This document shows, one piece after another, positions 15,533-64,000 of a DNA stretch of 64,000 nt. The DNA is from an uncultured Solirubrobacterales bacterium (GTDB lineage Bacteria; Actinomycetota; Thermoleophilia; Solirubrobacterales; JBBDJG01): NCBI GenBank assembly GCA_963826005.1, contig CAWGVJ010000014.1, positions 14,017-78,016 of the forward strand. The letters run 5' to 3'. The notes beneath the pieces were generated by a model, which worked only from the letters and a program-made list of their open reading frames with translations, was not told the DNA's origin and did no database searches. The position numbers and the translations under genes are program-made. Numbering within the stretch: position 1 is the first letter of the stretch; each line of letters starts with the position of its first letter.

Positions 15533-18053
<2,521 letters not shown>

Positions 18054-18057
<4 letters not shown>

Positions 18058-49920: not shown

Positions 49921-49992
49921 GGGCGCGTAGCTCAGCGGGAGAGCGCTCGCTTCACACGCGAGAGGTCGCTGGTTCGATCCCAGCCGCGCCCA
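49921..49992 (+). tRNA. tRNA-Val (anticodon CAC)
   Basis: Hand-folded cloverleaf: acceptor GGGCGCG/CGCGCCC, D arm GCTC-AGCGGGA-GAGC, anticodon arm CTCGC-TTCACAC-GCGAG, variable AGGTC, T arm GCTGG-TTCGATC-CCAGC, discriminator A. CCA is not encoded. Confidence 0.95.
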
Positions 49993-50006
49993 TCGACGAC
50001 GATGCC

Positions 50007-50435
50007 TCAGGAGGAGTCGGCGTGAGCGTCTTGCTCCGACAGCCCCACGGCTTCGAGGGCTTCCGAGCGCTCGCGGAACACCGCGACCCGAACGATCTTG
50101 TTCTGCCGAATCCAGACCGCGTTGTAGGAACGCCTCGTTACCTCGACTCCGCTGCGCCGACCGACCCCTCGGTGATCGACAGCCGCGACCACCGCCTCAT
50201 TGACCGGGATCAGCTCGACAACGTCGAGTCGATAGTTCGGAGCAAAGGTGCGAAACCAGCTTCCGAACCACTCGCCTACGGCGTCGGCTCCACGGTAGAC
50301 GCCTGGATCGACTGCCACGTCCTCCGACACGACGAGCTCGATGCTCGGGTCGAAACTTTGCATGGCCACGTTGAATCTCCGAGCGTTGGTGTTCTCGAAA
50401 TGCTCGCGCACGATCTCCACGTTCTCCTGCGACAT
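50007..50435 (-). CDS. NTF2/SnoaL-like cassette A (intact, 142 aa)
   Basis: MSQENVEIVREHFENTNARRF...RSEALEAVGLSEQDAHADSS. The stop lies 14 nt after the tRNA-Val 3' end. Confidence 0.8.
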   Translation of the reverse strand: MSQENVEIVREHFENTNARRFNVAMQSFDPSIELVVSEDVAVDPGVYRGADAVGEWFGSWFRTFAPNYRLDVVELIPVNEAVVAAVDHRGVGRRSGVEVTRRSYNAVWIRQNKIVRVAVFRERSEALEAVGLSEQDAHADSS

Positions 50436-50438
50436 CGC

Positions 50439-50834
50439 CTACTCCAAGAGCCCGAGGGCTTCGAGGGCTTCGTCCCTGGCCCAGAAGGCCTGACGCCTCG
50501 TGATTAGGCCCTCCGCGAACCCGACCACCCACCAGTCGCGGAGCTCGGCGGGCAAGCCGCTGCCTTTACCGCGCCCGGTGCGAACGAATGCAACCAGGAG
50601 CCGGTCATCACCCAAGTCCGTTATCTCCCCGACCTCGATGCGGATGTCCTCGATGACGTCGAATAACTCCGCGACCCACTCGCGCACCTCCGCCCGTCCG
50701 CGGTACACATCTCTAAACCCGGGGAAGGGGGAGCTGCTCCGGGACTCCCATACGACGTCAGGGCTGAGAAAAGCCACGAAGGCATCGAAGTCGCGGCGGT
50801 TGACAGCGTCGGTCGCTTCACGTAGTAGCTCCAC
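50439..50834 (-). CDS. NTF2/SnoaL-like cassette B (131 aa from GTG; canonical ATG replaced by ATT)
   Basis: In-frame ISEQN-VELLREATDAVNRRDFDAF...RDEALEALGLLE. The TAG stop is 3 nt before the cassette A ATG (J2). Confidence 0.7.
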   Translation of the reverse strand: MELLREATDAVNRRDFDAFVAFLSPDVVWESRSSSPFPGFRDVYRGRAEVREWVAELFDVIEDIRIEVGEITDLGDDRLLVAFVRTGRGKGSGLPAELRDWWVVGFAEGLITRRQAFWARDEALEALGLLE

Positions 50835-50928
50835 GTTTTGCTCAGAAATACGCCTTCACCCGGCCCTCAAATGGCTATTTCATGGGTCGCGTGTGACGAC
50901 GCCGTCGTCATGGTCTCTCCTGCGACAT
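50835..50928 (-). pseudogene. truncated cassette remnant (start module only)
   Basis: The J1 start half gives ATG at 50928 and MSQERP-stop, then about 70 nt of unrelated filler before cassette B. Confidence 0.6.
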
Positions 50929-50951
50929 CGCCCGCGCAGTATCCCGCAGGC

Positions 50952-51367
50952 TCAGGAGTCGGCGTGAGCGTCTTGCTCCGACAGTCCCACGGCTTCGAGG
51001 GCTTCGTTGTGTTCGCGAAAGATTCGGATGCGCCTGATCTTGCCCTCGGCAAAGTCATAGACATTTGCGCTATGCAGGTCAACGGCCAGGCCGCTGGTTC
51101 GCCCAGTCGCGGTGGCGTGCAGAAAGGCGAGGACTTGGGTCCCGCCATCGCCTCCAAGCGTTTGATCTCGACTCGGAAGTCGAGAGCGAGTCCTCAACGT
51201 CGCCCAGAACCGCCGAATAGCGCCCTGTCCGTGGTACAGGCCCCCGATCGCCGCCCACGGCGTTCGCAACTCGAAGTCTCGGTGCAGCAGCTGAGATAGC
51301 GGTCGAGGTCCCGCTCATTGAGCGCCGCAACAGCTCGCTCCACAAGTTCCACGTTCTCTTGCGACAT
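50952..51367 (-). pseudogene. NTF2/SnoaL-like cassette D, frame-disrupted
   Basis: MSQENVELVERAVAALNERDLDRYLSCCTE, then a shift to ..TPWAAIGGLYHGQGAIRRFW...VYDFAEGKIRRIRIFREHNEALEAVGLSEQDAHADS. 416 nt. Confidence 0.65.
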
Positions 51368-51390
51368 CGCCCGCGCAGTATCCCGCAGCG

Positions 51391-51812
51391 TCAGGAGTCG
51401 GCGTGAGCGTCTTGCTCGGACAGCCCCACGGCTTCGAGGGCCTCGGCCCTGCTTGTGAATCCCTGGCCCCGCATGAGCCTGCCGTCTCGCACCGCAACTA
51501 CGTGCCAGATGTGCCAGCTGACATCCACGCCGCTCTGCTTGCCACGGCCCCGCATGGTCACAGAGACGAGCAGCTGATCGCCCGCCTCGATGATCTCGTG
51601 GACCTCGATGTGGGGCTCGTCGAACTCTTCCCTGAACCAGCTTAGGAACCGCCTGAGTCCCTCATGCCCCCGTACGCACCCGCGAAGCCGGGGATCGTCC
51701 CCGTTGAGAGGTACTCGGCATCTGGAGCGATGTCCGCAACCACGGCGTCGAGATCGCCCCGGTTGAACGCCTCGTAGACTCGCTGCACCACCTCCACGTT
51801 CTCCTGCGACAT
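51391..51812 (-). pseudogene. NTF2/SnoaL-like cassette E, one frame change near 51670
   Basis: MSQENVEVVQRVYEAFNRGDLDAVVADIAPDAEY..., then ...FLSWFREEFDEPHIEVHEIIEAGDQLLVSVTMRGRGKQSG...AEALEAVGLSEQDAHADS. 422 nt. Confidence 0.65.
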
Positions 51813-51816
51813 CGCC

Positions 51817-52218
51817 TTACTCCGACAGCCCGGCGGCTTCCAGGGTCTCTTCGCGGGTTGCGAAGGACTGGATGCGCACGAACTTGCTCGCGCGAAGCGT
51901 GTACAAGACGGCCCAACGCCGCTCAAACGGCGCACCGCTTCCCCTCCCGTGTCCTCGCTCGTGATGGACGACGAGGACCCGATCCTCACCGGCGTCGACG
52001 ATCTCGATCGGCTCCAGCGAGTACTCGTCCCAAGTGCCCCAGTAATCGCGGTAGTAGTCGACCACGGCGCTCTTGCCATGCATGTGCTCGGGGTGGTCGG
52101 GGAAGAGCGAGGACAGCGAAGCGTCGAGCTCGACCTCCTCGTCGAGCACATCGAAGAACCCGCTCGGATCGCCCGATCGGTAGATGCTCCGCACGATCTC
52201 CACGTTCTCCTGCGACAT
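51817..52218 (-). CDS. NTF2/SnoaL-like cassette F (intact, 133 aa)
   Basis: MSQENVEIVRSIYRSGDPSGFFDVL...TREETLEAAGLSE. TAA, then a 4-nt spacer before the cassette E ATG. Confidence 0.8.
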   Translation of the reverse strand: MSQENVEIVRSIYRSGDPSGFFDVLDEEVELDASLSSLFPDHPEHMHGKSAVVDYYRDYWGTWDEYSLEPIEIVDAGEDRVLVVHHERGHGRGSGAPFERRWAVLYTLRASKFVRIQSFATREETLEAAGLSE

Positions 52219-52241
52219 CGCCCGCGCAGTATCCCGCAGGC

Positions 52242-52657
52242 TCAGGAGTCGGCGTGAGCGTCTTGCTCCGACAGCCCCACGGCTTCGAGGGCCTCGTCGC
52301 TGGTCGTTGTAGAGTCGATCCGCGTGACCTTGCCGTCTCGGATGGTCGAGACCATGGCGTCCCGGCGTTCGACGCTAACGCCGCTACCGCGTCCGATGGC
52401 CCGCATGAGAAAGAGCGAGACCACCTGATCGCCCGCGTCAACGAGGCGCTCCAACTTCATCGCATAGCTCCCGAACGTCTCGCCCCAGTTGGTCAGCCAC
52501 TCCGTGTACCCGGCCAGACCGTGATAGCGTGCCCGCGTCCGGGATGTCGTGGTCGTAGACCTCGATCTCGCGGTCGAATGACGTCCCAGAGAGGCTCGCC
52601 GGTCTCGTCAAAGTGATCGTGGAATCGGCGCGCAATCTCGACGTTCTCCTGCGACAT
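52242..52657 (-). pseudogene. NTF2/SnoaL-like cassette G, at least 2 frame changes
   Basis: MSQENVEIARRFHDHFDETGEPLWDV.., FDREIEVYDHDIPDAGT.., MKLERLVDAGDQVVSLFLMRAIGRGSG...SDEALEAVGLSEQDAHADS. Confidence 0.65.
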
Positions 52658-52680
52658 CGCCCGCGCAGTATCCCGCAGGC

Positions 52681-53097
52681 TCAGGAGTCGGCGTGAGCGT
52701 CTTGCTCCGACAGCCCCACGGCTTCGAGGGCCTCGGCCCGCGTCTCGAAGGTGCGCCACCAGACGCACTTCCCGCGCCGCCACCGGCCCACGTACCAGAC
52801 CGTCTCGTCCAACGGCACGTCGCTACCCGCGCCGTGGCCGCGCAGGTGCAGAGTCGCCACCGTCAGGTCCCCAACGTCGCGGACTTCGCCAACCTCGATG
52901 GTGAAGTCGGGGATGGCGCTGAGCAGGTCGTTCCACCAGCGGCGGACTCCTTCGTGACCGTGATAGCTGCCCTCCATGCGAGCCGCCCGCGGGACGCCCT
53001 CCACGTCATCGTCCGTCAGCGCCAGACTGGCGTCGAGGTCGCGCCGGTTGAAGGCGTCGAAGGCTCGGTAAGTCAGTTCCACGTTCTCCTGCGACAT
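52681..53097 (-). CDS. NTF2/SnoaL-like cassette H (intact module; read through from cassette I)
   Basis: MSQENVELTYRAFDAFNRRDLDASLALTDDDV...MEGSYHGHEGVRRWW...RAEALEAVGLSEQDAHADS. Confidence 0.8.
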   Translation of the reverse strand: MSQENVELTYRAFDAFNRRDLDASLALTDDDVEGVPRAARMEGSYHGHEGVRRWWNDLLSAIPDFTIEVGEVRDVGDLTVATLHLRGHGAGSDVPLDETVWYVGRWRRGKCVWWRTFETRAEALEAVGLSEQDAHADS

Positions 53098-53505
53098 CGC
53101 CCGCTCCGACAGCCCCACGGCTTCGAGGGCCTCGGCTTTGTCGTTGTAGGTCGCTACCCGCACGGCCTTTCCGTCGCGGACGGTCCACACCTGGGTCAGT
53201 TGAGCCTCAACCTCGGCACCACTTCCCTTGCCGCGCGTGTGTACACGCAAGACGACGACAACGCGATCCCCACCTACTTCGATGAAGTCCTCAGGTTCCA
53301 TCCGCACGTATTCCCAGAGTCTCGAAGAATCCGCAAGGAGATTTCGGATGGCTGCACGGCCGTAATACGTTCCGGCGTAGGGGCCAATCGCAGCCGTGAT
53401 GTCGTATTCGGCGTCGGGATGGACATGTTCGAGGAGGGCGTCCAAGCCTGCGCGGCTGAACGCCTCAAGGGCCCGGCGCACAAACTCCACGTTCTCCTGC
53501 GACAT
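53098..53505 (-). CDS. NTF2/SnoaL-like cassette I (intact module lacking a stop, fused in frame to H)
   Basis: MSQENVEFVRRALEAFSRAGLDALLEHVHPDAEY...KAEALEAVGLSE-RA-MSQENVELT. The J2 TAG is replaced by CGG at 53101-53103. Confidence 0.75.
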
Positions 53506-53528
53506 CGCCCGCGCAGTATCCCGCAGGC

Positions 53529-53958
53529 TCAGGAGTCGGCGTGAGCGTCTTGCTCCGACAGCCCCACGGCTTCGAGCGCTGCCGCTCGGTCCTCTCCGAA
53601 GTACGTCCACTCGACGGGCTTGCCGTCTCGGAACGTCGTATACGTTCCAGACGTATGCCTCAACCTCGACGCCGCTCGCCTTCCCCCGACCGCCCGTCCG
53701 GATGAACGCCAGCACCTTGTCGCCTGCGTCGATCAGTTCCTTGGGTTCGCCAACGGGTGCGTCCCCCTTCGCACCAGCTCCATCTCGCGCTTCGAACCAG
53801 GCCCGCGCCTTGTCGCGACCACGCAGAAGCACCGGGTCATGAGCCGCCGCGAGAAGTCGAACGACGGCCTCGGGCGGGATCAGGTCCCAAATCGCCTCGT
53901 CCCCTTGGTCGGCCAACGCGTACATGCGCCGCACGACCTCCACGTTCTCCTGCGACAT
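53529..53958 (-). pseudogene. NTF2/SnoaL-like cassette J, frame change near 53640
   Basis: MSQENVEVVRRMYALADQGDEAIWDLIPPEAVV...ELIDAGDKVLAFIRTGGRGKASGVEVEAYVWNVY, then a shift to ..DRAAALEAVGLSEQDAHADS. Related to the cassette at 63356..63775. Confidence 0.65.
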
Positions 53959-54031
53959 CGCCCGCGCAGTATCCCGCAGGCTTCAGAAGTCGGCGTGAGC
54001 GTCTTGGGACCGCCCTCTAAGCCGTCGCGTC

Positions 54032-54217
54032 TCAATCGCCGTCATGGATGCTCCGAAAAGCAGCCCAGAGACCACACCTTCCAGCAGGCTGAAGGAATCG
54101 TCCCAAAGCACCACCTGGAGGAGTTGCGTAAGGCCTCCAAAGAGGACGGCGTAAGAGAAACAACAGCCAGGGGTGGTCCAACAGGTAGTCGCGCAGGTCC
54201 TTTCGCATCTGCGACAT
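54032..54217 (-). CDS. non-NTF2 61-aa ORF carrying the array start module (MSQ...)
   Basis: MSQMRKDLRDYLLDHPWLLFLLRRPLW.... Preceded by the J1 start half and followed by a degenerate J1 end half (..QDAHADF stop at 53983-53985). Locally lower GC. Coding status is uncertain. Confidence 0.35.
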   Translation of the reverse strand: MSQMRKDLRDYLLDHPWLLFLLRRPLWRPYATPPGGALGRFLQPAGRCGLWAAFRSIHDGD

Positions 54218-54415
54218 CGCCGCGCAGTATCCCGCAGGCTCAGGAGTCGGCGTGACCCGTCCGCTCGAGCCGATCCAGTCGACCCGTGAGGCCTTGCGTA
54301 TTGCGCTTCGGACCGCGTCTCAAGGTCACGAAGGCGGGCCGAATGTCCCGCAGTCTCGGTACGGCCAACGGTCCAGTCGGCTGCCCTAAAAGCACGTCGG
54401 AGGGAGGCCGACTGT

Positions 54416-54712
54416 CTACATGCTGCTCGGCGCCCTCGGTCCCTCTCTGCCCCTGATGACCCAGCGTGCCACGACGAGCACGATGATGACCCCGATGATC
54501 GCGCCGACGATGCCGCCCCAGTCGAACACGTTGGTGTCGCCGATACCGAGACCGACCGTGAAGATCAGGAAACCCATGAGCGCTCCGCCCAGCCCCACGA
54601 GTAGCGACACGCCCCACGATCGCGGGCCAGCCATGTGCTCGAACGGGTCACCAGGCATCAGCACCCTCCCGATCACTCCGGCCACAAAACCGACTAGCAG
54701 CGCTCCGATCAT
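54416..54712 (-). CDS. GlsB/YeaQ/YmgE-family (transglycosylase-associated) small membrane protein
   Basis: Start at ATG 54712 with GGAGGAGGGAG upstream. MIGALLVGFVAGVIGRVLMPG...GLGGALMGFLIF...GGIVGAIIGVIIVLVV. Confidence 0.75.
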   Translation of the reverse strand: MIGALLVGFVAGVIGRVLMPGDPFEHMAGPRSWGVSLLVGLGGALMGFLIFTVGLGIGDTNVFDWGGIVGAIIGVIIVLVVARWVIRGREGPRAPSSM

Positions 54713-54801
54713 TGCGTCTCCCTCCTCCTGCGCGGAGTCCAATCATCGCAGGGCGCCCGTCTCGGACCCAGCGGCGGGCGCGATCTTTCAGAGTCGCAGG
54801 C

Positions 54802-55220
54802 TCAGGAGTCGGCCTGAGCGTCCTGCTCCGACAGGCCTACGGATTCGAGAGCTTCGGCGTGATCTTGGAAGATCTCTTGGTAGAAGATCCTCCGCCTGCG
54901 CCCGTCACGACGTTCGTCATCTCCATGTTCGACTCGGGACCACGGCCTGCGCCGTGCCAGGCGTACCTGAGGACGACTCGGTCGGCAGCGTCAATGAAGT
55001 CGCCGATCGGATGAAGTGTGTCCGTCTCCCAGATCTCGCGGGTCTGCTCGAAGAAGCGCATTACGGCTTCCCGGCCTACGAGGGGCCCCGGTTCCGGCCA
55101 CATGCTGGGAGGCCGCAAGATGACCTCTTTTGGACGGTAAAACGCGCTGAAGGCCTCCATGTCTCCTGCGTTCCACGCAGCGTACGCGGCACGGACGATC
55201 TCCACGTTCTCCTGCGACAT
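54802..55220 (-). pseudogene. NTF2/SnoaL-like cassette K, frame change near 54890
   Basis: MSQENVEIVRAAYAAWNAGDMEAF...WPEPGPLVGREAVMRFFEQTREIWETDTL.... C-terminus ..IFQDHAEALESVGLSEQDAQADS lies in another frame. Confidence 0.65.
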
Positions 55221-55223
55221 CGC

Positions 55224-55617
55224 CTACTCCTGCAGCCCCACGGCTTCGAGGGCCGCGTCCCGGCTGTTGAAGTTGCGCCACCAGATGCCTTCCCGTCCCG
55301 CCACCTGTGCACCAGCCAAACCATGTCCTCGGTGGGGACGTCGCTACCGGCGCCATGGCCGCGAAGAATCACGGCTGCGACGTCAGGTCTCCAAGGTCGC
55401 GCACTTCGACGACCTCGCCCGTGTAGTCGGGGAAGACGTCGAACAGGCTTTTCCACCACCGGCGGATTCCGCCGTGGCCGTCGTAGTTGCCCTCCATGGC
55501 GGCAACCAGGGGGAAGGCCTGCACGTCATCGTCCATCAGCGCCAGAGAGGCGTCGAGGTCCTGCCGGTTGAAGGCGTCAGCGGCTCGGTAAACCAGCTCC
55601 ACGTTCTCCTGCGACAT
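55224..55617 (-). pseudogene. NTF2/SnoaL-like cassette L, 2 frame changes
   Basis: MSQENVELVYRAADAFNRQDLDASLALMDDDV...MEGNYDGHGGIRRWW..., AAVILRGHGAGSDVP.., ..RDAALEAVGLQE. Confidence 0.65.
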
Positions 55618-55620
55618 CGC

Positions 55621-56019
55621 CTACTCCGACAAGCCGACGGCCAGGAGGGCTTGATCAGGGTCTGGAACGCCCGCATGTAGACCATCCTTCCATGGCGGAA
55701 CTGGGCCACATAACCCGCCGCCGACTCGGTTTCGACGCCGCTGCCCTTGCCGCGGTAGCGCAGCCGCCAACGACAACCACGACATCGCCCGCCGCGAGAA
55801 CGTCATCGATGTCGGTTCGCAGAAACTCCCACGCATCGCTGAGGTCGTTCACGTATCGCCTCAGCCCGTCGTGGCCGTGGTAGACGCCCCCTTCGCCAAG
55901 TTGAGCCAAGAACGAATGCCACTCGATTTCCGGATCGGTCAGCTCGATCAGACGCGCGACGTCCTGTCGGGCGACAGCATCTATGACGGCCGACGCAGCT
56001 CCACGTTCTCCTGCGACAT
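55621..56019 (-). pseudogene. NTF2/SnoaL-like cassette M, several compensating frame changes
   Basis: MSQENVE, shift, AASAVIDAVARQDVARLIELTDPEIEWHS...YHGHDGLRRYV...VVVVG, shift, ..GKGSGVETES.., shift, ..DQALLAVGLSE. Confidence 0.6.
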
Positions 56020-56022
56020 CGC

Positions 56023-56417
56023 CTACTCCGACAGGCCGACGGCTTCGAGGGCTTCCGGTGATCCCAGAAGAACTCAACCAGGATGGTCTTGCCCTTGCGC
56101 ACCGTAATGACGGAGGTGACCTCGATCTTCAGGTCAGGACCACTGCCTTCGGCACGCCAGACGAACCTCGTGACGACTCGGTCACCCAGGTCGAGGAGTT
56201 CGATCAGTTCAAGGGTGTCGGCGTCGAAGGGCTCACGTTGCTGCTCCCATAGGCGCATGACTGCATCTCGGCCCGTGAAAGGCTCGGATCCTTCCGGCCA
56301 GCCATCCGCATACCGCACGACGACGTGCGGGTCGAACGAGTCGCCGAACGCGCCCATGTCTCCGGCGTTCCAAGCCTCGAAGGCGGCCCGCACGATCTCC
56401 ACGTTCTCCTGCGACAT
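56023..56417 (-). pseudogene. NTF2/SnoaL-like cassette N, one frame change near 56060
   Basis: MSQENVEIVRAAFEAWNAGDMGAF...VITVRKGKTILVEFFWDH, then a shift to ..EALEAVGLSE. Confidence 0.7.
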
Positions 56418-56420
56418 CGC

Positions 56421-56818
56421 CTACTCCGAGAGGCGGGCGGCTTTGAGGGCTTCGTCACGGTCGCGGAAGAAGTCCACGCGTACGGCCCTGCCGTGGCGGA
56501 GCGTGACGACCTGGTAGAGGAAGTCCTCTCCTCCGGCCCGCTGGCCCTTCCGCTGCCCCGGAGGTGCATGAGGGTGAACAGTCTGTCGCCGCCGTCGATG
56601 AGCTCTTCGGGGTCGATCCGAAAATCACCAAATACGTCGCGAAGCATCCGCCAGAACGTTTTCACGCCCTCATGGCCGTGATGGATCTCGCCATCGGGTG
56701 CAACGCGCGTCAGGTCGAACACCACATCCGGGTCCATCGTTGCGAGGGCGGCATCCCAGTCGCCTCGGTTATAGGCCGCTTGAGCACGCATGAGCGTTGC
56801 CACGTTCTCCTGCGACAT
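56421..56818 (-). pseudogene. NTF2/SnoaL-like cassette O, frame change near 56540
   Basis: MSQENVATLMRAQAAYNRGDWDAALATMDPDVVFD...LMHLRGSGRASG, shift, ..VVTLRHGRAVRVDFFRDRDEALKAARLSE. Confidence 0.65.
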
Positions 56819-56841
56819 CGCCCGCCCAGTATCCCGGAGGC

Positions 56842-57271
56842 TCAAGAGTGGGTGCGAGCGTCCTGCTCCGACAGGCCGAGTGTTCCGAGGGCTTCGGCGT
56901 GATCCCGGATGACCTCCACGCCGACGATCTTGCCCTTGCGCACGGTAAGGACGTGCGTAGGACCGAATGTCTCGACTCCGGGCCACGGCCTGCGGCCCGC
57001 CAGACGTGACCGCACCGCAACGCGGTCGCCAGGCGTCGATGAAGTCGCTGGATTCAGTTCCAGGGTGTCGGCGTCCCAGGTGTCGCGGAGTTGTTTGACC
57101 TGGCGCATGACCGCGTCCCGACCCATCGAAGCTCGCGGCCGCTGCTCCGGCCAGATCGTCCGGCATCCGCACGACGACGTGGGGTCGTACAGCTCACAGA
57201 GGGCGTCCATGTCCCCTGCGTTCCACGCCTCGAAGGCGGCTCGCACGACTCTCCACGTTCTCCTGCGACAT
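56842..57271 (-). pseudogene. NTF2/SnoaL-like cassette P, several frame changes
   Basis: MSQENVE, shift, RAAFEAWNAGDMDALCELYDP...GRDAVMRQVKQLRDTWDADTLE...LTVRKGKIVGVEVIRDHAEALGTLGLSEQDARTHS (variant J1). Confidence 0.6.
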
Positions 57272-57294
57272 CGCCCGCGCAGTATCCCGCAGGC

Positions 57295-57743
57295 TCAGGG
57301 GTCGGCGTGAGCGTCTTGCTCCGGCAGCCCCACGGCTTCGAGGGCCTCATCCGGGTCCCGAAACGACCGGAAGTGAATGATTTTCCCATCTCGGAACGTC
57401 CAGACGTAAGCGACCGGCCCCTCCAACTCGATGCCGGTGTACCGCGCCTTCGATCGCGTTCGGTGGACGGAGACGAGGCGATCACCCTCGCCAACGATTT
57501 GCTCCAACTCGACCAGCAGCCACTCCGAGCCCTCGACCCAGCGTTTCGCTGCCCGAGCGACACCCTCATGGCCGCGATACGACTCGCCAATGTGGTCCGG
57601 CAAAGTCGTGTCCTCGTAAACGACATCGGGGTCCAGGAAGGACATATCGATGATCGATCCCTGTTGCCATGCATCGAGCGTCCATGGCTCCCGAGGCCAC
57701 GTCTCCAAGAATGCTCGAAGGTTCTCCCCTTCTCCTGCGACAT
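57295..57743 (-). pseudogene. divergent NTF2/SnoaL-like cassette Q, one frame change near 57725
   Basis: MSQEKG, shift, ENLRAFLETWPREPWTLDAWQQGSIIDMSFLDPDVVYED...YRGHEGVARAAKRW...FRDPDEALEAVGLPEQDAHADP. First gene after R-element copy 1. Confidence 0.65.
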
Positions 57744-58010
57744 CGCCCGCGCAGTATCCCGCCTTGCGGTGCTCCGGCCGATGGCACCCACGTCCGTCCT
57801 ATTGCCGACCGGACTCGGTTTTGGGCACTGGCGGCTTCAGTGCCCATATCCGCATACATCCAGCCGTATCCGGCCCCATTTCGGTCGGGCGGCGCGGATC
57901 GTTCCGTGCCTCAGGTTCGCGGTGTAGAGCGGGAAAACGGCGGCTTCGTCCCTTCCCGGTCGTCGCGCTTCACACGCGAGAGGTCGCTGGTTGGATCCCA
58001 GCCGCGCCCA
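57744..58010 (+). repeat. R element copy 1 ending in a direct repeat of the tRNA-Val 3' part
   Basis: 57958..58010 is ggtcgtcgcgcttcacacgcgagaggtcgctggttGgatcccagccgcgccca. The last 45 nt equal tRNA positions 49948..49992 with one mismatch. The preceding degenerate D-arm-like gtagagcgggaaaac cannot form a cloverleaf. Hairpin GGGCACTG-gcggctt-CAGTGCCC at 57823..57845. Confidence 0.85.
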
Positions 58011-58056
58011 TCGAAGAAACGCCTGCGAGGCGTCCGTCTCCGATGCAGGACCGTTC

Positions 58057-58161
58057 TCAGCCGACCCTCGTCGGCGGGAGCGTTTGGGCATCAGCCCCGA
58101 CTGCTCGGCTAGAGATGCGGCCTGAAGGCGGCTGCTGGTAGGCCACGTTCTGCTGCGACAT
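58057..58161 (-). pseudogene. truncated cassette remnant abutting tRNA repeat 1
   Basis: MSQQNVAYQQPPSGRISSRAVGADAQTLPPTRVG stop. Only the start module is family-like. Confidence 0.5.
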
Positions 58162-58596
58162 CGCCTGCTCCGAGAGGCCCGCGGCTTCAAGGGCCTCGCG
58201 CGTGTCGAGATAGTGCCGTTGATCGATGATCTGGCCGTCCTTGAGCGTGTAGACGATAGTGAACTGAAGGTCGACAGAAGCACGGCTCCCCTTGCCTCTC
58301 GCGGACTGACGCACGACTGCGACGACACGGTCATCGCCAGCGTCAATGATCTTCTCGAGCCCGATTCTCCATTCCACGAAATCCTCGAGCCAGGCGCGAA
58401 GGAACTCGGCGAAATCCTTCTCGGCCAACGTAGGTCTTGTAGGGCGGATGCTTCACGCGCGGGCGAGGGTGGACGCGCAGGCATCGAGGCCCTGGTCGAA
58501 GACGGCGTCGGAGGCAATGGCCGGATCGCCCTGGTCAATGCCTTCCGTGAACAGGTCCCAGGCTCGCCGCACGATCTCCACGTTCTCCTGCGACAT
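58162..58596 (-). pseudogene. NTF2/SnoaL-like cassette S, 2 compensating frame changes and no stop (TAG replaced by CAG)
   Basis: MSQENVEIVRRAWDLFTEGIDQGDPAIASDAVF.., ..VKHPPYKTYVGREGF.., AEFLRAWLEDFVEWRIGLEKIIDAGDDRVVAVV...TREALEAAGLSE-QA-MSQQNV. Confidence 0.6.
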
Positions 58597-58599
58597 CGC

Positions 58600-59058
58600 C
58601 TACTCCGACAGCCCGACGGCTTCGAGGGCCTCGGCGCGTTCCAGATAGTCGTCCAATCGGATGATCAGGCCGTCCTCCACGGTGACGATCGTGAAGATCG
58701 TTGCGTTGACTTCGATGTCGCTTGTCTTTCCCTTCATCGCCAGTCGCAGCACCGCGAGAACTTGGCTGTCGCTGAGATCGGTGACCTCAAGGACGGTGAC
58801 CCGGGAGTCCTGGGCGGCATCCAGCATCTGATCGACACCACGCGCTGCGTCCTCGCAACCGCGGGCGGTGATACCGATAAGGGCCGACTTCCACTCGATA
58901 TTCGGATGCAAGTAGCGCATCGCGTCCGCGAACTCGGGCGAGACCTCACCCGCCCTCAGGCTGTCCGCAACGGAACGAGGGGCTTGCCAGTAGGCGGCAA
59001 AGGCTCGTTCCACTGCCTCGAAGTAGCGCCGCACGATCTCCACGTTCTCCTGCGACAT
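58600..59058 (-). CDS. NTF2/SnoaL-like cassette T (intact, 152 aa, long subfamily)
   Basis: MSQENVEIVRRYFEAVERAFAAYWQAPRS...LERAEALEAVGLSE. Confidence 0.8.
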   Translation of the reverse strand: MSQENVEIVRRYFEAVERAFAAYWQAPRSVADSLRAGEVSPEFADAMRYLHPNIEWKSALIGITARGCEDAARGVDQMLDAAQDSRVTVLEVTDLSDSQVLAVLRLAMKGKTSDIEVNATIFTIVTVEDGLIIRLDDYLERAEALEAVGLSE

Positions 59059-59103
59059 CGCCCGCGCAGTATCCCGCAGCCTCAGGAGTCAGTCGTGAGC
59101 GTC

Positions 59104-59502
59104 CTACTCCGACAGCCCCACGGCTTCGAGGGCATCCTCGCGCCAGGGAAGAGTTCGAAACGGACAGCTTGCCGTCCCGCATGGTCCGAAGATGTGCGAC
59201 ACGTATCTCGACGTCACGTGCCACTGCCCCTGGGTCGGGAATCGTACCCGCACGAATACCACGATCGATCGCCACGCAGGAGAACTGTTCTGGCTCTCAG
59301 GGACCACTTCGTCGAACGCGGCCAGTTCATCCTCAAGGGCGCGCCTGACTTCCTGGCCCCCGCGATACGTTCCGATCCTAGGGTCCCGATCCGGATCCGA
59401 TATTCGAAGTCCGGGTGCGTATCACGGAAGACGGCGTCACAGTCGTCCGCGACCGATGGCCTCGTACACCCCGCGGAGCGTCTCAACGTCTGCCTGCGAC
59501 AT
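59104..59502 (-). pseudogene. NTF2/SnoaL-like cassette U, several frame changes
   Basis: MSQADVETLRGVYEAIGRG.., DAVFRDTHPDFEYRI.., ..VAIDRGIRAG.., ..REDALEAVGLSE followed by TAG inside an otherwise J1-type junction. Confidence 0.55.
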
Positions 59503-59525
59503 CGCCCGCGCAGTATCCCGCAGGC

Positions 59526-59944
59526 TCAGGAGTCGGCGTGAGCGTCTTGCTCGGACAGCCCCACGGCTTCGAGGGCTTCCGCGTGATCCCAGAAGAACTC
59601 CATGGTCGAAGATCTTGCCCTTGCGCACCGTGTAGACGCCCGTCATCTCCAAGTTCGACGTCAGGACCGTGGCCTGCGCCACGCCAGATGAACCTCACGG
59701 CAACTCGGTCGGCGCCGTCGATGAAGTCGCTGATCGGTTCCAGGGCGTCGGCGTCCCAGGTCTCGCGCAGTTGCTCCAACTGGCGCATGACCGCCTCCCG
59801 ACCCACGAACGGCCCCGGCTCCGGCCAACCCTCCGCGGCCCGCACGATGACGTCCGGGTCGTAGAGCTCGCGAAGGGCATCCATGTCCCCCGCGTTCCAC
59901 GCCTCGAAGGCGGCTCGCACGATCTCCACGTTCTCCTGCGACAT
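59526..59944 (-). pseudogene. NTF2/SnoaL-like cassette V, 2 frame changes near the C-terminus
   Basis: MSQENVEIVRAAFEAWNAGDMDALRELYDPDVIVRAAEGWPEPGPFVGREAVMRQLEQLRETWDADALE..., then ..LEMTGVYTVRKGKIF.., then ..FFWDHAEALEAVGLSEQDAHADS. Confidence 0.7.
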
Positions 59945-59947
59945 CGC

Positions 59948-60343
59948 CTACTCCGACAGCCCCACGGCTTCGAGGGCGAGCCGCTTCGACATGTAGCCGA
60001 CCGCGCGCGTGATGCGGCCACCTTTGACGGTCACCACCGATGCCCAGGGAGCATCGAATCGGATCCCGGTCTGCCGGAAATGACCGATGAAGCGCTGCAC
60101 GGTGAGGAAGTTCTCGCCGTCCACCGGGCTGATCTCCTCGACCCGCATCGCAAAATCGGAGAACGCCTCCTCCAGATCGCTCCACCAGCGCCGCAGGCCC
60201 TCGTGACCGTGATACGTCGCTTCGAGCGCCCAACCTTTGGCGTTCACGATCTCGAGGTCCGGAGCCCAGAGCGCCTCAGCGAATTCCCCGCGCTCGATTG
60301 CCTCTCCCCAGCGCCGGACTATCTCCACGTTCTCCTGCGACAT
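59948..60343 (-). CDS. NTF2/SnoaL-like cassette W (intact, 131 aa)
   Basis: MSQENVEIVRRWGEAIERGEFAEALWAPDLEIV...YHGHEGLRRWW...KRLALEAVGLSE. First gene after R-element copy 2. Confidence 0.8.
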   Translation of the reverse strand: MSQENVEIVRRWGEAIERGEFAEALWAPDLEIVNAKGWALEATYHGHEGLRRWWSDLEEAFSDFAMRVEEISPVDGENFLTVQRFIGHFRQTGIRFDAPWASVVTVKGGRITRAVGYMSKRLALEAVGLSE

Positions 60344-60607
60344 CGCCCGCGCAGTATCGCCGCCTAACGGTGCGCCTGCCTATGGACCGCGTCCGTCTAT
60401 TGCGAACCAGACTCGGTTTGGGCACTGGCGGCTTCCAGTGCCCATATCCGCATACATCCAGCCGTATCCGGCGGCATTTCTTCAAGCGGCGCGGTTCGTG
60501 TCCCGCGCCGCGTTCGGCAGCGCAAAGCGGGAAACGACGACTGTGCGCCTTTCGGGTCGTCGCGCTTCACACGCGAGAGGTCGCTGGTTCGATCCCAGCC
60601 GCGCCCA
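60344..60607 (+). repeat. R element copy 2 ending in a direct repeat of the tRNA-Val 3' part
   Basis: 60555..60607 ggtcgtcgcgcttcacacgcgagaggtcgctggttcgatcccagccgcgccca, with 45/45 identity to the tRNA 3' part. Hairpin GGGCACTGG-cggctt-CCAGTGCCC at 60420..60443. Confidence 0.85.
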
Positions 60608-60622
60608 TGTCGGGTCGCCTAT

Positions 60623-61980
60623 TTACGCCGGCAGGCGACGTTCATGCACTGCAGCGGGTCGCCATTGCCGAAGGCCCTGTTCCCGCCGCCGTCGAGCACG
60701 CCCGCGATCGCCTCGATGCCGAGATCGAAGTTCGAGCTAGCCCTGTTCGCCACCAGGGCGACCTTGTCGCTCCTCACGTCGATCCCGTCGTCACCGTTTC
60801 GATCCGTGCGGTTGCCGCGCAGCTCGGAGACCTGGATGTGCGTATCCGGATCCGATCATCTCCCGGCCGAAGTGGATGCCGTCCACGCCATTCTTAACCG
60901 AGCGGTTTCCGGCGATGACCATGCCGCCCTGCGTCCTCGTACAGGATCTCGATGAAGATCCCGTGTCCAGAGTTGCTGCGAAGAAGGTTCGATGCGACGG
61001 CGTTGCGGCGGCTCTCGCCGCTGATCACGATCCCGCCGAGACCGCCGTTCTCGACGATCCGGTTTCCGGCAATCCGGTTGTCCTCGCTCTCCCCCACCGT
61101 GATTCCGCCCGACCAGTTGATCGGATGTGGAGGCCGTCGGGGCATTGCGAGAAATGATGTTCCGCTCCACCCGGTTTCGTCTGCGCTCCCTCGCTCATGT
61201 CTATGCCGGTGGAGCCGTTGTCCCACACACGATTGCCCTCGATGGAATTCTCGGAGGCCCCGTCCACGAGGCTGATCCCGGCACCGCGATTCGCGAAGGA
61301 GCGATTTCCCCTGATCGACAGGTTTCTGGTGCTAAAGAGGAACAGGCCGATGCCGTTGCCGAACGCGACATTGTCCTCCAGTCGGTCTCCAGCGACACCG
61401 CCGGCAAGCTCGATCCCGAAGCCGGAGTTTCGGCCTATGACGTTCCCGGTGATCGTCGTGCGCCCCTGAGGCTCGTAGACCGCGATGCCGGCGCTGTTGT
61501 TGTCCAGCGCGCGGTTGCCCTCTATTCGGCCATTCGACATGAGAGAGGTCGACGATGCCGCCGAAGCCGCTGTTGTCGTGGAGCCGAAGTCGGAGCAACG
61601 AGTTGTGATCCGCGATGATGACCTGAACGCCGTGCGCGAACTCGCGCACGGTGCCGTCTCGGATGGTTACCCCGTCGTGCCCTGCCTCTTGGCCGACTGC
61701 AGCTGTCGAACCGACCGTTCCGAATGCCCGTGTCGCAGCCAAGACCAGGACGAGGATCGCCGTCGCCGTCGACGGTGTGACCGTTCAAATCGAGGGTGAC
61801 GTTGTCGGCCCCGATCACGAGGCCATCGCCGGGGCAGTCGACCAGGTCCGAGTCGAGCGTCGTGTCCTGCGTGATCACGTCGCCGCACTGGACGTGGTTC
61901 GCGAGCGCCTGGCTGCCGTTCGCGAGAAGCGCCGTCACCGTGAGCGCCGTTAGAAGGCCTGGCCAATTGAGTCTGGGCAT
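60623..61980 (-). pseudogene. secreted right-handed parallel beta-helix repeat protein (NosD/CASH-like), multiple frame changes
   Basis: SD GGAGGG plus ATG 61980. MPRLNWPGLLTALTVTALLANGSQALA signal. Repeated ..GN.I..N...GI.. units spread over ORFs 61522..61980, 61332..61742, 61025..61540 and 60894..61226. C-terminus NRASSNFDLGIEAIAGVLDGGGNRAFGNGDPLQCMNVACRRK, TAA at 60625-60623. Confidence 0.7.
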
Positions 61981-62039
61981 CCGTTCCCTCCGTTCGCGAT
62001 CCGACCCTACCGGCGCGGGTAGCGCTGCGGCAAGGGGTC

Positions 62040-62235
62040 AGGCCTTGGGCACTGGCGGCCGTCCGGTGCCCATATCCGCGTAGATCCAGCCGTATCCGGC
62101 ACCATTTCGGTGGGGCGGCCCGGATCGTCCATTGCGTCAGGTTCGCGGCGTAAAGCGGGAAACGGCGACTTCGGGCCTCGTAGGTCGTCGCGCTTCACAC
62201 GCGAGAGGTCGCTGGTTCGATCCCAGCCGCGCCCA
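62040..62235 (+). repeat. R element copy 3 ending in a direct repeat of the tRNA-Val 3' part
   Basis: 62183..62235 has 45/45 identity. It is followed by tcgacgacgatgcctcaggaggagtcggcgtgagcg, the same string that follows the genuine tRNA at 49993. Hairpin GGGCACTGG-cggccgt-CCGGTGCCC at 62047..62071. Confidence 0.85.
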
Positions 62236-62249
62236 TCGACGACGATGCC

Positions 62250-62669
62250 TCAGGAGGAGTCGGCGTGAGCGCCTTGCTCCGACAGCCCCAGAGTTTCGAG
62301 CGCCTCCGTGTGGTCCCAGAAGAACTCCAGGTAGCGGATCTTGCTTTTGCGCACCGTAAACACCGCTGTCATCTCCATGTTCGCCTCAGGGCCATGGCCA
62401 ACCCCACGCCAAACCATCCTCACCACTACCCGGTCGCCGGCGTGGATGAAGCTGATCGCTTCCACGGCGTCGGCATCGAAGGCCTCCCGCTGCCGCTCGA
62501 ACTGGCGCATGACCGCCTCTCGACCTATCAAGGGCCCCGGCTCTGGCCAACCTTCCAAGTCGGTCAGGGTCATGGCGTTCGGGTCGTACAGCTCACGAAG
62601 AGCATCCGTGTCTCCGCTATTCCACGCCTCGTAGGAGGCTCGCACGATCTCCACGTTCTCCTGCGACAT
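62250..62669 (-). CDS. NTF2/SnoaL-like cassette X (intact, 139 aa)
   Basis: MSQENVEIVRASYEAWNSGDTDALRELYDPNAM...WPEPGPLIGREAVMRQFERQREAFDADAVE...FFWDHTEALETLGLSEQGAHADSS. Confidence 0.8.
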   Translation of the reverse strand: MSQENVEIVRASYEAWNSGDTDALRELYDPNAMTLTDLEGWPEPGPLIGREAVMRQFERQREAFDADAVEAISFIHAGDRVVVRMVWRGVGHGPEANMEMTAVFTVRKSKIRYLEFFWDHTEALETLGLSEQGAHADSS

Positions 62670-62672
62670 CGC

Positions 62673-63131
62673 CTACTCCGACAGCCCCACGGCTTCGAGG
62701 GCGTCTCGCCGGTCGAGGTAGTCGTGGATTCGCCACACCAATCCATCGCGCAGGGTCACCACAGTCGACATCCGCGCGCTGACCTCGATTCCGCTGCCCT
62801 TGCCCTTGAGAGCACCATCGACCACGGCGATGACTTGATCGTCATCGCCAGCGATCAGTTCGGCGATCGTCAGGACGTAGCTCTCGGCCGCTTCCAGGAA
62901 CTCATCCCAGGCTTGCGCCACGCCGAGATAGCCTCGGTAGGTCTTGGTCGAAAAGGCAGGCGTCCATTCGAGTTCGGGGTGCACATAGGTCATCAGATCC
63001 TCGGCCTCTGGCGGAAGCGTGCCTGCCTGGAACGTGGCGGCATAGGAGTAGGGCTTCTTCCAGTAGGCCTCCCCGACTCGGGCAGAGGCGTCGAAGAAGC
63101 GCTTCACGATCTCCACGTTCTCCTGCGACAT
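62673..63131 (-). CDS. NTF2/SnoaL-like cassette Y (intact, 152 aa, long subfamily)
   Basis: Start at ATG 63131 within ORF 62673..63218. MSQENVEIVKRFFDASARVGEAYWKKPYS...LDRRDALEAVGLSE. First gene after R-element copy 4. Confidence 0.8.
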   Translation of the reverse strand: MSQENVEIVKRFFDASARVGEAYWKKPYSYAATFQAGTLPPEAEDLMTYVHPELEWTPAFSTKTYRGYLGVAQAWDEFLEAAESYVLTIAELIAGDDDQVIAVVDGALKGKGSGIEVSARMSTVVTLRDGLVWRIHDYLDRRDALEAVGLSE

Positions 63132-63349
63132 CGCCCGCGCAGTATCCCGCCTATCGGTGCGCCTGCCGATGGCGCCCGCGTCCGTCCTGTTCCGGGACGC
63201 AGCCTTATCCAGCCCCATTTCGGTCGGGCGGCCCGGATGCCTAATTGCGCCGCAGTGCCCGGTGCCAAGCCGGAAACGGTGATTTCGTGCCTTTCGGGTC
63301 GTCGCGCTTCACACGCGAGAGGTCGCTGGTTCGATCCCAGCCGCGCCCA
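63132..63349 (+). repeat. R element copy 4 (hairpin segment missing) ending in a direct repeat of the tRNA-Val 3' part
   Basis: 63297..63349 has 45/45 identity. The upstream part shares ccatttcggtcgggcggcccggat and ..ccggaaacggtgatttcgtgcctttcgggtcgtc with the other copies. Confidence 0.8.
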
Positions 63350-63355
63350 CCTCGG

Positions 63356-63775
63356 TCAGCGACCGTCGTCTGACTTCTTCAACCCGGCAGCTTCCAGGGC
63401 CGCCGTTCGATCATCCCCGAAGTACTCCTGTGCGATGGGCTTTCCATTACGGAATGTCCACACGTGCGCGACATGGGCCTCGACTTGGGCCCCACTCTCT
63501 TTGCCCTTGCCGCTTGTCCTCATGAACGCGACCACTTTGTCGTCTGCGTCGATCAGCTCTTCGGGTTCCCAGCGGTTCGTCCCCTCCTCCCATGCCTCAC
63601 GCCCACTGTTGATGTAGGCACGCACCTGGTCACGACCGCGCACCACTGTCGGCTCTATCTGGCGGCGCGAGGCGTCCATGACGAATTCCGGCGTGACTAG
63701 GTCCCAAACTGTTTCGTCCCCGCGATCAATTAAGGCGTAGACACGCCGCACGATCTCCACGTTCTCCTGCGACAT
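63356..63775 (-). CDS. NTF2/SnoaL-like cassette AA (intact, 139 aa)
   Basis: MSQENVEIVRRVYALIDRGDETVWDLVTPEFVMD...VWTFRNGKPIAQEYFGDDRTAALEAAGLKKSDDGR. The stop lies 6 nt after tRNA repeat 4. Confidence 0.8.
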   Translation of the reverse strand: MSQENVEIVRRVYALIDRGDETVWDLVTPEFVMDASRRQIEPTVVRGRDQVRAYINSGREAWEEGTNRWEPEELIDADDKVVAFMRTSGKGKESGAQVEAHVAHVWTFRNGKPIAQEYFGDDRTAALEAAGLKKSDDGR

Positions 63776-63778
63776 CGC

Positions 63779-64000
63779 CTACTCCGACAGCCCCACGGCT
63801 TCGAGGGCTTCGGCCCGCGTGTCGGAAGGTGCGCCACCAGACGCACTTCCCGCGCCGCCACCGGGACGTTCCACGGGGATCGTCCTCTGCAAGGGATGTC
63901 GCTACCCGCGCCGTGGCCGCGTTGGCGCAGGGCGCGAGCGTCGATGTCTCCGAAGGTCCTGCACTCTCGACGACCTCGACGGTGAAGTCGGGAAAGATTT
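63779..64000 (-). pseudogene. NTF2/SnoaL-like cassette AB, C-terminal part only (window end), with indels relative to cassette H
   Basis: Ends ..AEALEAVGLSE TAG (63781-63779), 3 nt before the cassette AA ATG. The nucleotide sequence is alignable to 52720..52920 with gaps. Confidence 0.55.

Follow-up and report, generated by a model that had tools for sequence, protein, structure and literature searches.

SnoaL-like gene cassettes with conserved ends beside a Solirubrobacterales tRNA-Val gene: a possible hypervariable island fed by a shared cassette pool

How can neighbouring genes differ so widely in their centres and yet be nearly identical where they join? The question is raised by a 64,000-nucleotide (nt) stretch of contig CAWGVJ010000014.1 (assembly GCA_963826005.1, an uncultured Solirubrobacterales bacterium), which we call the window. 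Coordinates below are positions in the window unless another locus is named, and the 49.9 kb to the left of the array is referred to as the backbone. Beside a tRNA-Val(CAC) gene at 49921-49992 (plus strand; ARAGORN; Rfam tRNA, 69.7 bits), the presumed attB/attL attachment site and anchor of an island, the minus strand from 50007 to 64000 is packed with units of ~400 bp, 25 of which are SnoaL_2 units. A preliminary description of this DNA had counted at least 27 NTF2/SnoaL-like cassettes next to tRNA-Val(CAC). The array and its location stand, whereas the count is 25 SnoaL_2 units and reaches ~27 only with the addition of a non-SnoaL ‘MSQ’ open reading frame (ORF; 54032-54217) and of a unit cut off by the window edge. 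The same description had the 14 kb filled with such units: the minus-strand units of ~400 bp are indeed there, but they are interrupted by four partial tRNA-Val copies, a NosD-like gene and a membrane-protein gene. The composition of the array also departs from that of the backbone (GC 64.4% vs 69.6%; GC at third codon positions, GC3, 0.79 vs 0.93).

The cassettes share their ends: a head of 40 nt, made up of the H module (GCGGGATACTGCGCGGGCG) and the first 7 codons; a tail of 30 nt, formed by the last 10 codons; and, optionally, an extension of 32 nt, the T module. The 20-mer ATGTCGCAGGAGAACGTGGA, allowing ≤4 mismatches, has 24 minus-strand copies between 50435 and 63775 and one other copy in the window, at 8533; a 25th head, at 50928, is interrupted by a 79-nt insertion. 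Tail and head meet in two ways. In J1 junctions, ...GLSE-QDAHADS-TGA is followed by a 23-nt spacer and ATG, with 11 spacers at 50929-50951, 51368-51390, 52219-52241, 52658-52680, 53506-53528, 53959-53982, 54218-54239, 56819-56841, 57272-57294, 59059-59103 and 59503-59525; of the 11 copies of the corresponding repeat family (D14), 5 match the reference copy at 100%. At the J1 junction spanning 52198-52295 (minus strand), for example, the tail EALEAVGLSE occupies 52266-52295, the T extension QDAHADS and its stop 52242-52265, the spacer with GGGATACTGCGCGGGCG 52219-52241 and the head ATGTCGCAGGAGAACGTGGAG 52198-52218. In J2 junctions, ...GGAG-TAG-GCG-ATG, the tail runs through TAG and GCG directly into the head, as at 62649-62705 (minus strand; repeat D7), and the GGAG of the tail lies 6 nt ahead of the next ATG, which is Shine-Dalgarno spacing. 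There are 10 J2 sites, at 50436, 51813, 55221, 55618, 56020, 56418, 58597, 59945, 62670 and 63776, and two stop-less versions, at 53098 and 58162. Both junction classes had been recognized in the preliminary description, and every site listed for them was recovered. A short direct repeat is present in both cassette ends (head, GGGC(GA)TGTCG(CAG)GAG; tail, GGGGC-TGTCG-GAG), and a J2 junction is thus two tandem copies of it, 2 nt apart.

Codon choice distinguishes the ends from the cores. It was compared over 245 full-length cassettes from the window and from other loci, gathered by a protein hidden Markov model (HMM) and not by DNA motif; we scored codon identity in pairs sharing the amino acid, with the expectation taken from core codon usage. 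Mean identity is 0.78 over the 17 terminal columns, against 0.45 expected, while the 89 core columns give 0.46 against 0.44. Ser2 and Ser133 are both encoded by TCG (0.96 and 0.91, vs 0.28 expected for each), unlike the cores, in which AGC is the most frequent Ser codon. Leu127 is held at CTC (0.87 vs 0.30) and Glu128 at GAA, a minor codon (0.94 vs 0.65). Because the terminal codons so exceed expectation and the cores sit at it, the ends are constrained as DNA or RNA. This bears out the claim that the junctions, and not the cores, are conserved at the nucleotide level: terminal codon identity is beyond what protein constraint gives, and the excess conservation at synonymous sites is confined to the ends. 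Between intact window units, the cores are 14-54% identical in amino-acid sequence (median 25%); an estimate by eye had often given ~20-25%.

The junction consensus is uniform across genomes, with no genome-specific variants, and junction identity within genomes (0.79-0.80) equals that between them (0.79). Classical within-genome concerted evolution, one of the processes suggested for the conserved junctions, is therefore rejected; the same junction recurs in many species. Loci and contigs fetched from other genomes and metagenomes, labelled L001 onwards, contain 451 heads: 184 follow a J2 junction, 115 a J1 junction, and 121 are ‘H-only’ heads, whose upstream DNA is unrelated (119 contexts) and in which conservation sets in sharply at about -19. 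Where an array ends, and where the T module begins on its left, varies from locus to locus. Heads truncated at ATGTCGCAGG, at its boundary with G(A/T)TAG, were found in four loci (L004, L024, L025 and L092). H includes a -10-like GATACT 9 nt before the ATG, and one leader subtype has TAGGCA 17 nt upstream of that GATACT; a scan for E. coli-type consensus promoters returned 0 sites, and terminators are no commoner than in shuffled sequence. A hairpin at the junction was rejected as well, folding of the junction as RNA and as DNA on both strands being no better than that of shuffles (z -0.2 to -1.1) and giving no stable or attC-like hairpin. Rfam families in the array, the leaders and 16 other loci were limited to tRNAs and one signal recognition particle RNA. 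We also discarded an uptake-sequence or Chi-like motif: junction k-mers in the 49.9-kb backbone are not above the GC-rich background.

That cassettes are exchanged, as the preliminary description proposed, is supported by three comparisons. Across the loci there are 38 pairs of cores that are 88-99% identical in nucleotide sequence, lie on different contigs, mostly of different species-level genomes, and have unrelated flanks; the upstream junction class differs in 26 of these pairs and the downstream class in 19. One case is L097, from another metagenome, which has the window cassette with its head at 62669 at 98.5% identity, but there its head is of the H type rather than J2 and another gene lies downstream; identity ends at GCG-ATG on one side and within the T module on the other. 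L005 and L022, two arrays of 93% identity from a single metagenome-assembled genome (MAG) bin, form a mosaic in which shared blocks of 92-95% identity are broken by core replacement, one core being swapped for another core or for four cores, with breakpoints at +24 to +28 of the head and 32-41 nt before the next head. Finally, five syntenic relatives, which have the backbone dnaX-ybaB-recR-ask-asd...galactose-oxidase-like-tRNA-Val at 75-91% nucleotide identity, differ in content at this locus, and no identical arrays were found among them. L220 shares the backbone and has no array beside tRNA-Val, L221 has ~4 cassettes there, L040 has a 5.6-kb island of 4-6 cassettes and a NosD-like gene, and in L098 the region is rearranged and intact tRNA-Val is absent at the position.

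The same ends are widespread. Starting from protein homologues of one cassette, we reached two metagenome contigs that are unrelated but share the junction DNA: L001, with 18 heads after tRNA-Trp, and L002, with 12 intact cassettes. A 34-mer of H plus the start has exact matches in 93 stretches of contigs from species-representative genomes, nearly all of them MAGs of Solirubrobacterales or other Thermoleophilia. A 30-mer of J2 is matched exactly in at least 120 metagenome contigs from soil or rhizosphere, and one complete chromosome of 3.88 Mb carries at least 45 heads, spread over seven windows of 8 kb. The architecture was seen in >200 independent contigs, one of which holds 12 intact cassettes within a 426-kb Joint Genome Institute (JGI) contig. 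The head motif gave 0 matches in IMG/VR, and a 1.1-kb mini-island returned nothing from INPHARED or PLSDB, collections that all hold little or nothing from this lineage. Full-text literature searches gave no description of such arrays; this is apparently an undescribed mobile gene-cassette arrangement, and its mechanism may be new. Three contigs with the exact head are labelled otherwise, L010 (Ilumatobacteraceae), L032 (Chloroflexia) and L054 (Mycobacteriales); the L010 cassettes are 94-98% identical to Solirubrobacterales ones, which reflects mis-binning or cross-class transfer.

Within the window the array is partitioned by copies of tRNA-Val. Four 45-nt copies, from the anticodon stem to the 3' end and in direct orientation (plus strand), divide it into at least five mini-islands: 57966-58010 (1 mismatch; att-type direct repeat), 60563-60607 (45/45), 62191-62235 (45/45; Rfam partial tRNA at 62174-62235, 25.9 bits; repeat D11, 92%) and 63305-63349 (45/45). 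The 36 nt that follow the third copy are also identical to the DNA downstream of the true tRNA-Val. Mini-island 1 (50007-57743, minus strand; HMM frames and Pfam) carries 17 SnoaL_2 cassette units and two non-SnoaL ORFs, with heads located by motif scan at 50435, 50928 (split), 51367, 51812, 52218, 52657, 53097, 53505, 53958, 55220, 55617, 56019, 56417, 56818, 57271 and 57743, and the tail of its final unit stops 14 nt short of tRNA-Val. The cargo of mini-island 2 (58057-60343, minus strand) has heads at 58161 (truncated, ~35 codons), 58596, 59058, 59502, 59944 and 60343. In mini-island 4 (62250-63131, minus strand; HMM, Pfam) two intact cassettes, 62250-62669 and 62673-63131, are joined by J2, and in mini-island 5 (63356-64000, minus strand; HMM, Pfam) a cassette at 63356-63775 is followed by the tail of a further unit, the array continuing past the window.

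Such repeats extend to other loci and other tRNA genes. Of 97 loci, 38 contain a tRNA gene, which is often separated from a head by 110-280 nt, and in nine loci besides the window the 3' part of the tRNA is directly repeated 1.2-6.6 kb away. In every case the identity covers 39-47 nt, from the anticodon stem/loop to the 3' end, and the tRNA species with repeats are Val-cac, Arg-ccg, Ala-cgc, SeC, Arg-cct and Arg-acg. The segments so bounded measure 1.1-8 kb and contain cassettes and sometimes a NosD-like gene, but no integrase. Direct repeats of tRNA 3' ends that start at the anticodon loop are the footprint of integrase-mediated insertion with crossover in that loop. Because the 45-nt tRNA-Val repeats start at the anticodon stem and equivalent repeats occur at five other tRNA species, we read them as a footprint of site-specific integration, and the suggestion of an integrase-independent cassette system becomes doubtful.

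Beside the tRNA-Val copies lie leaders of ~200 nt, which are only 73-84% identical, unlike the near-perfect 45-nt copies. The leader of sub-array 1 (57744-57965) is homologous to 60344-60562, 62000-62190 and 63132-63304, and the type is also present in L018, L025, L052, L087 and L088; the hairpin GGGCACTGGCGGCTTCAGTGCCC lies within it at 57823-57845, and its motif GCCATCGGCCGGAGCACCGCAAGGC immediately precedes H. The hairpin is a perfect 8-bp stem, GGGCACTG-N7/8-CAGTGCCC, placed between the first cassette and the tRNA-Val fragment (chance expectation 0), and was seen at 57823-57845 and 60420-60443, as a variant near 62080, and in L025 and L080. Directly upstream of H, the leader motif GCCAT(A/C)GGCAGGCGCACCG(C/A)TAGGC is common to arrays after Arg, SeC and His tRNAs elsewhere; it may be a regulator site or a -35 region.

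The 30 backbone ORFs of the window that were scanned include neither a recombinase nor a toxin, in line with the preliminary statement that neither is visible there. Among 194 ORFs (148 + 46) flanking arrays elsewhere no recurrent recombinase was found, the neighbours being diverse housekeeping and accessory enzymes. Specifically, an intI tyrosine integrase adjoining the array was found neither among the 30 window ORFs nor among these 194 ORFs, which also include no XerD-like recombinase at an array 5' end. The visible island of the window and the fully visible islands of L005, L027, L040, L080 and L087 contain no integrase. A single large serine recombinase, with phage genes, adjoins the L002 array. 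That array lies between a prophage end (portal, TerL and the large serine recombinase; L002 1-7610) and comM/dprA-type genes (L002 13722-16357).

The explanation we favour, with about even confidence, is that this is a hypervariable tRNA-Val island drawn from a lineage-wide pool of mobile, homology-flanked cassettes, built in two layers. In the first, modules consisting of a leader and 2-17 cassettes would have been inserted serially into the 3' half of tRNA-Val by site-specific recombination, with crossover at the anticodon stem-loop and each insertion leaving a 45-nt copy of the tRNA 3' end; the footprint is observed, and the integrase would act in trans. In the second, single cassettes would be gained, lost and replaced by recombination inside the conserved ends, an outcome that is observed and whose mechanism is most likely homologous recombination of the RecA type, or gene conversion, following the transfer of DNA between cells. 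Homologous recombination fits the absence of a linked recombinase and of a hairpin, the ragged array ends and T edges, and the identical blocks of 40-100 nt. The ends may play a dual role: GATACT, placed 9 nt ahead of the ATG, would yield a near-leaderless transcript at H and J1, and the tail GGAG 6 nt before the ATG would allow coupled translation at J2. At J1 the upstream ORF would extend into the promoter module of the next unit, which would give the disordered QDAHADS tail. Expression function together with repeated exchange with the shared pool would then prevent the ends, unlike the cores, from diverging between paralogs and between species.

Several observations weigh against this two-layer explanation. 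The ends being identical, breakpoints can only be bounded, and recombination is seen through its outcomes, with no event seen directly. The head offers 21-28 identical coding nt, or 40 nt once H is counted, which is close to the minimum for RecA-dependent exchange. Nor can homologous recombination seed new sites, yet heads occur in 119 different upstream contexts. Foreign genes are bounded by short end pieces, for example H+ATGTCGCAGG...CCTGTCGGAG+T in L025 and L092, which fits a short specific site better than long homology. An integrase is missing from the window, from the five fully visible islands and from the neighbours; the E. coli-type promoter scan was negative, so the promoter role of H is putative; and with many units broken, the array may be partly decaying rather than functional. 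Some frameshifts may be assembly errors, as Lon, ribonucleotide reductase and asd in the backbone are broken too.

A serious rival, though one we consider unlikely, is an integron-like system, in which a dedicated recombinase encoded elsewhere would excise and insert cassettes one at a time at the short direct-repeat motif of both cassette ends. Head and tail share the motif, both with the otherwise minor Ser codon TCG (0.96, 0.91), foreign genes are framed by short motifs and H/T only (L025/L092; window 54032-54217 and 54416-54742), and truncated heads stop at the same endpoint in four loci. The sharp 5' conservation boundary across 119 unrelated contexts, the large serine recombinase directly upstream of the L002 array and the tRNA att footprints, which show site-specific recombination acting at these loci, agree with such a system as well. 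It is opposed by the lack of a recurrent recombinase among the 194 neighbour ORFs and of any among the 30 backbone ORFs, by junctions without attC-like or other stable secondary structure, and by array ends and T left edges too variable for a fixed crossover point; moreover the motif is a direct and not an inverted repeat, whereas the core sites of tyrosine and serine recombinases usually have an inverted arrangement. Put more broadly, and as tentatively, the TGTCG...GAG repeats and the H/T modules would be the sites of novel recombination machinery in an integron-independent cassette system of Solirubrobacterales/Thermoleophilia, and an integrase whose target is the anticodon stem-loop region in several tRNA species would seed arrays at many tRNA genes. 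If true, this would represent a second, actinobacterial solution to gene-cassette capture and shuffling.

Alternatively, the units would be ancient tandem paralogs whose ends are held by purifying selection as expression signals (a promoter with a near-leaderless start, a Shine-Dalgarno sequence, an operator or a small-RNA target), and the rearrangements incidental. Selection on a shared signal predicts the uniform junction consensus across genomes, and first genes retain H, with GATACT 9 nt before the ATG, despite unrelated upstream DNA; the J2 GGAG 6 nt before the ATG and the leader subtype with TAGGCA 17 nt upstream of GATACT are likewise what signals of this kind would look like. We nevertheless think it improbable: synonymous conservation spans all 10 tail codons, the minor codon included, and so reaches beyond a Shine-Dalgarno sequence, and cores 95-99% identical in different species-level genomes with unrelated flanks require recent movement. 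The array composition unlike that of the backbone, the tRNA att repeats and the empty consensus promoter scan count against it too. Least probable of all, to the point that we give it very little credence, is a chimeric or collapsed metagenome assembly that joined paralogs through the junction repeats. Repeats of 60-100 nt can mislead assemblers and polishers; ~15 of the 25 units have frameshifts or stops, ~1.4 per kb, against few broken genes in 49 kb of backbone; and a crude test scores 65% of units as intact in the window and 70% in genome contigs, fewer than the 87% of short-read contigs. But the same architecture in >200 independent contigs, both long MAG contigs and soil metagenome assemblies, and the cassettes that syntenic relatives also carry at tRNA-Val are hard to reconcile with an artefact.

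The two-layer island that we favour has partial counterparts among known systems. Gene-cassette arrays, which gather and shuffle small adaptive genes, are known mainly from integrons, mostly of Proteobacteria. Like integrons and clusters of attC sites lacking integron integrases (CALINs), the array is a long one-directional run of small, mostly promoter-poor genes with a repeated boundary element, holds unrelated content in the same frame, and consists of cassettes that are individually mobile and shared among genomes; NTF2-like proteins, such as Bal32a, are also among soil integron-cassette products. It differs from them in that no IntI-type integrase or attC-like imperfect hairpin was seen, in that part of its repeated element encodes protein (the first 7 codons and the last 10), and in having cassettes nearly all of one protein family, in an actinomycetotal host, at many loci per genome, often tRNA genes. 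Elements of the cis-mobilizable type (CIMEs) are integrase-less and accrete in tandem at tRNA genes. With these and other tRNA islands the array shares an intact tRNA at one end, direct tRNA 3' repeats from the anticodon stem-loop, tandem elements of a composition unlike the host, and the lack of an integrase inside small elements; its own elements, however, are tiny (1.1-8 kb) and almost one gene family, the cargo type occurs at six or more tRNA species, and there is an extra layer of cassette-level exchange.

Homologous exchange through conserved flanks has precedents as well. Borrelia vls, Neisseria pilS and the Anaplasma msp2 pseudogenes are families of silent cassettes for gene conversion and, as here, have a variable centre between conserved recombination handles, many pseudogenes and tandem copies. 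Those families encode surface antigens, whereas the fold here is a cytoplasmic NTF2 fold, without an evident single expression site, with many cassettes having their own start and apparent promoter, and with exchange also between genomes. In the ‘minimal mobile elements’ of Neisseria, alternative genes are swapped by homologous recombination via conserved flanks and with no dedicated mobility gene; exchange through conserved flanks without a mobility gene is the point in common, but there the flanks are housekeeping genes at one locus, and here they are 40-100-nt portable ends on each cassette. The rAID-1 loci of Bacteroidales are recombinase-associated immunity gene arrays: up to ~30 small genes are separated by repetitive sequence, their G+C is skewed from that of the host, there are signs that genes are actively being gained, and a XerD-like recombinase lies at the 5' end (bioRxiv 10.1101/471110). 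Small-gene arrays, repetitive junctions, skewed G+C (64.4% vs 69.6%) and gene gain (L005/L022) are common to both, whereas rAID-1 genes are homologues of diverse immunity families and the present array consists of a single SnoaL_2 family, in which Pfam and PADLOC detect no homology to toxins or immunity proteins; the XerD-like recombinase found there was also not found here. An abundant soil actinobacterial lineage apparently performs integron-like shuffling with conserved coding ends, tRNA landing sites and no linked integrase. Such arrays explain why short-read assemblies fragment at these regions, and primers on head and tail provide a polymerase chain reaction handle for harvesting the soil cassette pool.

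All 7 intact window units that were scanned pass the gathering score of Pfam SnoaL_2 (PF12680; 31-63 bits vs 27), in agreement with their initial description as NTF2/SnoaL-like. An AlphaFold2 model of unit 62250-62669 is an NTF2 cone (pLDDT, the predicted local distance difference test, 88; pTM, the predicted template modelling score, 0.82) in which the conserved N-terminus opens helix 1, the conserved C-terminus is a short terminal helix and the T-encoded extension is disordered. Foldseek and PDB profile matches are to uncharacterised NTF2-like proteins, the polyketide cyclases IdmH and SnoL, TerC, limonene epoxide hydrolases and Bal32a, the soil integron-cassette protein (PDB 1tuh), which is a close structural match (root mean square deviation 1.5 Å). 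PADLOC gave no match, and NCBIfam only weak ketosteroid-isomerase and SnoaL names. No toxin gene or toxin-domain fragment was detected in the window or among the neighbour ORFs of other loci. The products are cytoplasmic NTF2-cone proteins. From the structural likenesses, we tentatively take them as most likely forming a diversified repertoire for binding or transforming small molecules, a role we prefer to immunity because the nearest structures are small-molecule proteins of the SnoaL/epoxide-hydrolase type. The idea of an immunity-type array has so far gained no support: there is no PADLOC match and no toxin neighbour, and the Pfam families are only of SnoaL type.

Many window units are broken. 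HMM frames show single-frame read-through in only 10 of 25 units, the others being frameshifted, stop-containing or truncated, at a break density of ~1.4 per kb, and the 49 kb of backbone shows only a few broken genes. By a crude measure of intactness (an ORF of at least 115 codons from the head), 65% of cassettes are intact in the window, 70% in genome contigs and 87% in short-read metagenome contigs. In the broken window units, true decay is indistinguishable from assembly error. Some genes of the backbone, too, look broken or fused (regions 15533-18057, 8608-13042 and 37745-40162): the Lon protease gene is in ~3 pieces, the class II ribonucleotide reductase region is split into several pieces over 4.4 kb, by frameshifts or an intein, and asd and a metallophosphatase gene are one 805-aa ORF in the window and separate genes in the relatives L220 and L221. 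These broken and fused genes suggest assembly indel errors.

The array contains some non-SnoaL cargo. A small membrane protein, with its own Shine-Dalgarno sequence and only weak TctB/PRK10457-type matches, is encoded at 54416-54742 (minus strand); this non-SnoaL cassette sits within a J1 spacer, bracketed by two copies of CA(C/G)GCCGACTCCTGAGCCTGCG. The 61-aa ORF at 54032-54217 (minus strand) opens with the H module and ATGTCGCAG and is followed by a complete T+H module; it has no family match in PADLOC or NCBIfam. A frameshifted gene for a NosD/right-handed beta-helix protein with a signal-peptide-like N-terminus lies at 60856-61980 (minus strand; Pfam). NosD-like genes lie beside tRNA-Val fragments elsewhere too (L040 1490-2833, L025 71-1516, L005 1539-2291, L098 10001-11287 and L099 1065-2648), with further evidence for such cargo in relatives from L031 and L081, and in a Pfam census of the 148 + 46 ORFs the NosD-like beta-helix protein is the commonest non-enzyme neighbour of the arrays. 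In L099, and only there, an HTH_17 (excisionase-type) domain precedes the NosD-like gene.

The 79-nt insertion (50837-50915, minus strand) splits its head after ATGTCGCAGGAGA and was also found in L024, L055 and L005. It occupies an identical head position in non-orthologous cassettes of several genomes, and at equivalent array positions L005 has it and L022 does not. The element yields the tiny ORFs MSQERP* and MTTASSHATHEIAI*, and the cassette start then becomes GTG. Either a miniature insertion element with the head as its target or a leader-peptide module would be a possible identity for it.

In the backbone, a ‘mycobacterial 4-TMS phage holin’ protein (PF04020) is encoded at 5766-6197 (minus strand) among housekeeping genes, with no other phage genes seen nearby. 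Three more SnoaL_2-type genes lie outside the array, at 8135-8533 (minus strand), 37332-37718 (plus strand) and 41418-42080 (minus strand). The solitary gene at 8533 begins ATGTCGCAGGAGCAAGTGGAG and has a diverged H-like sequence, GGAATACTGTGCGCCGG, upstream, so that the family head is also present on lone backbone genes.

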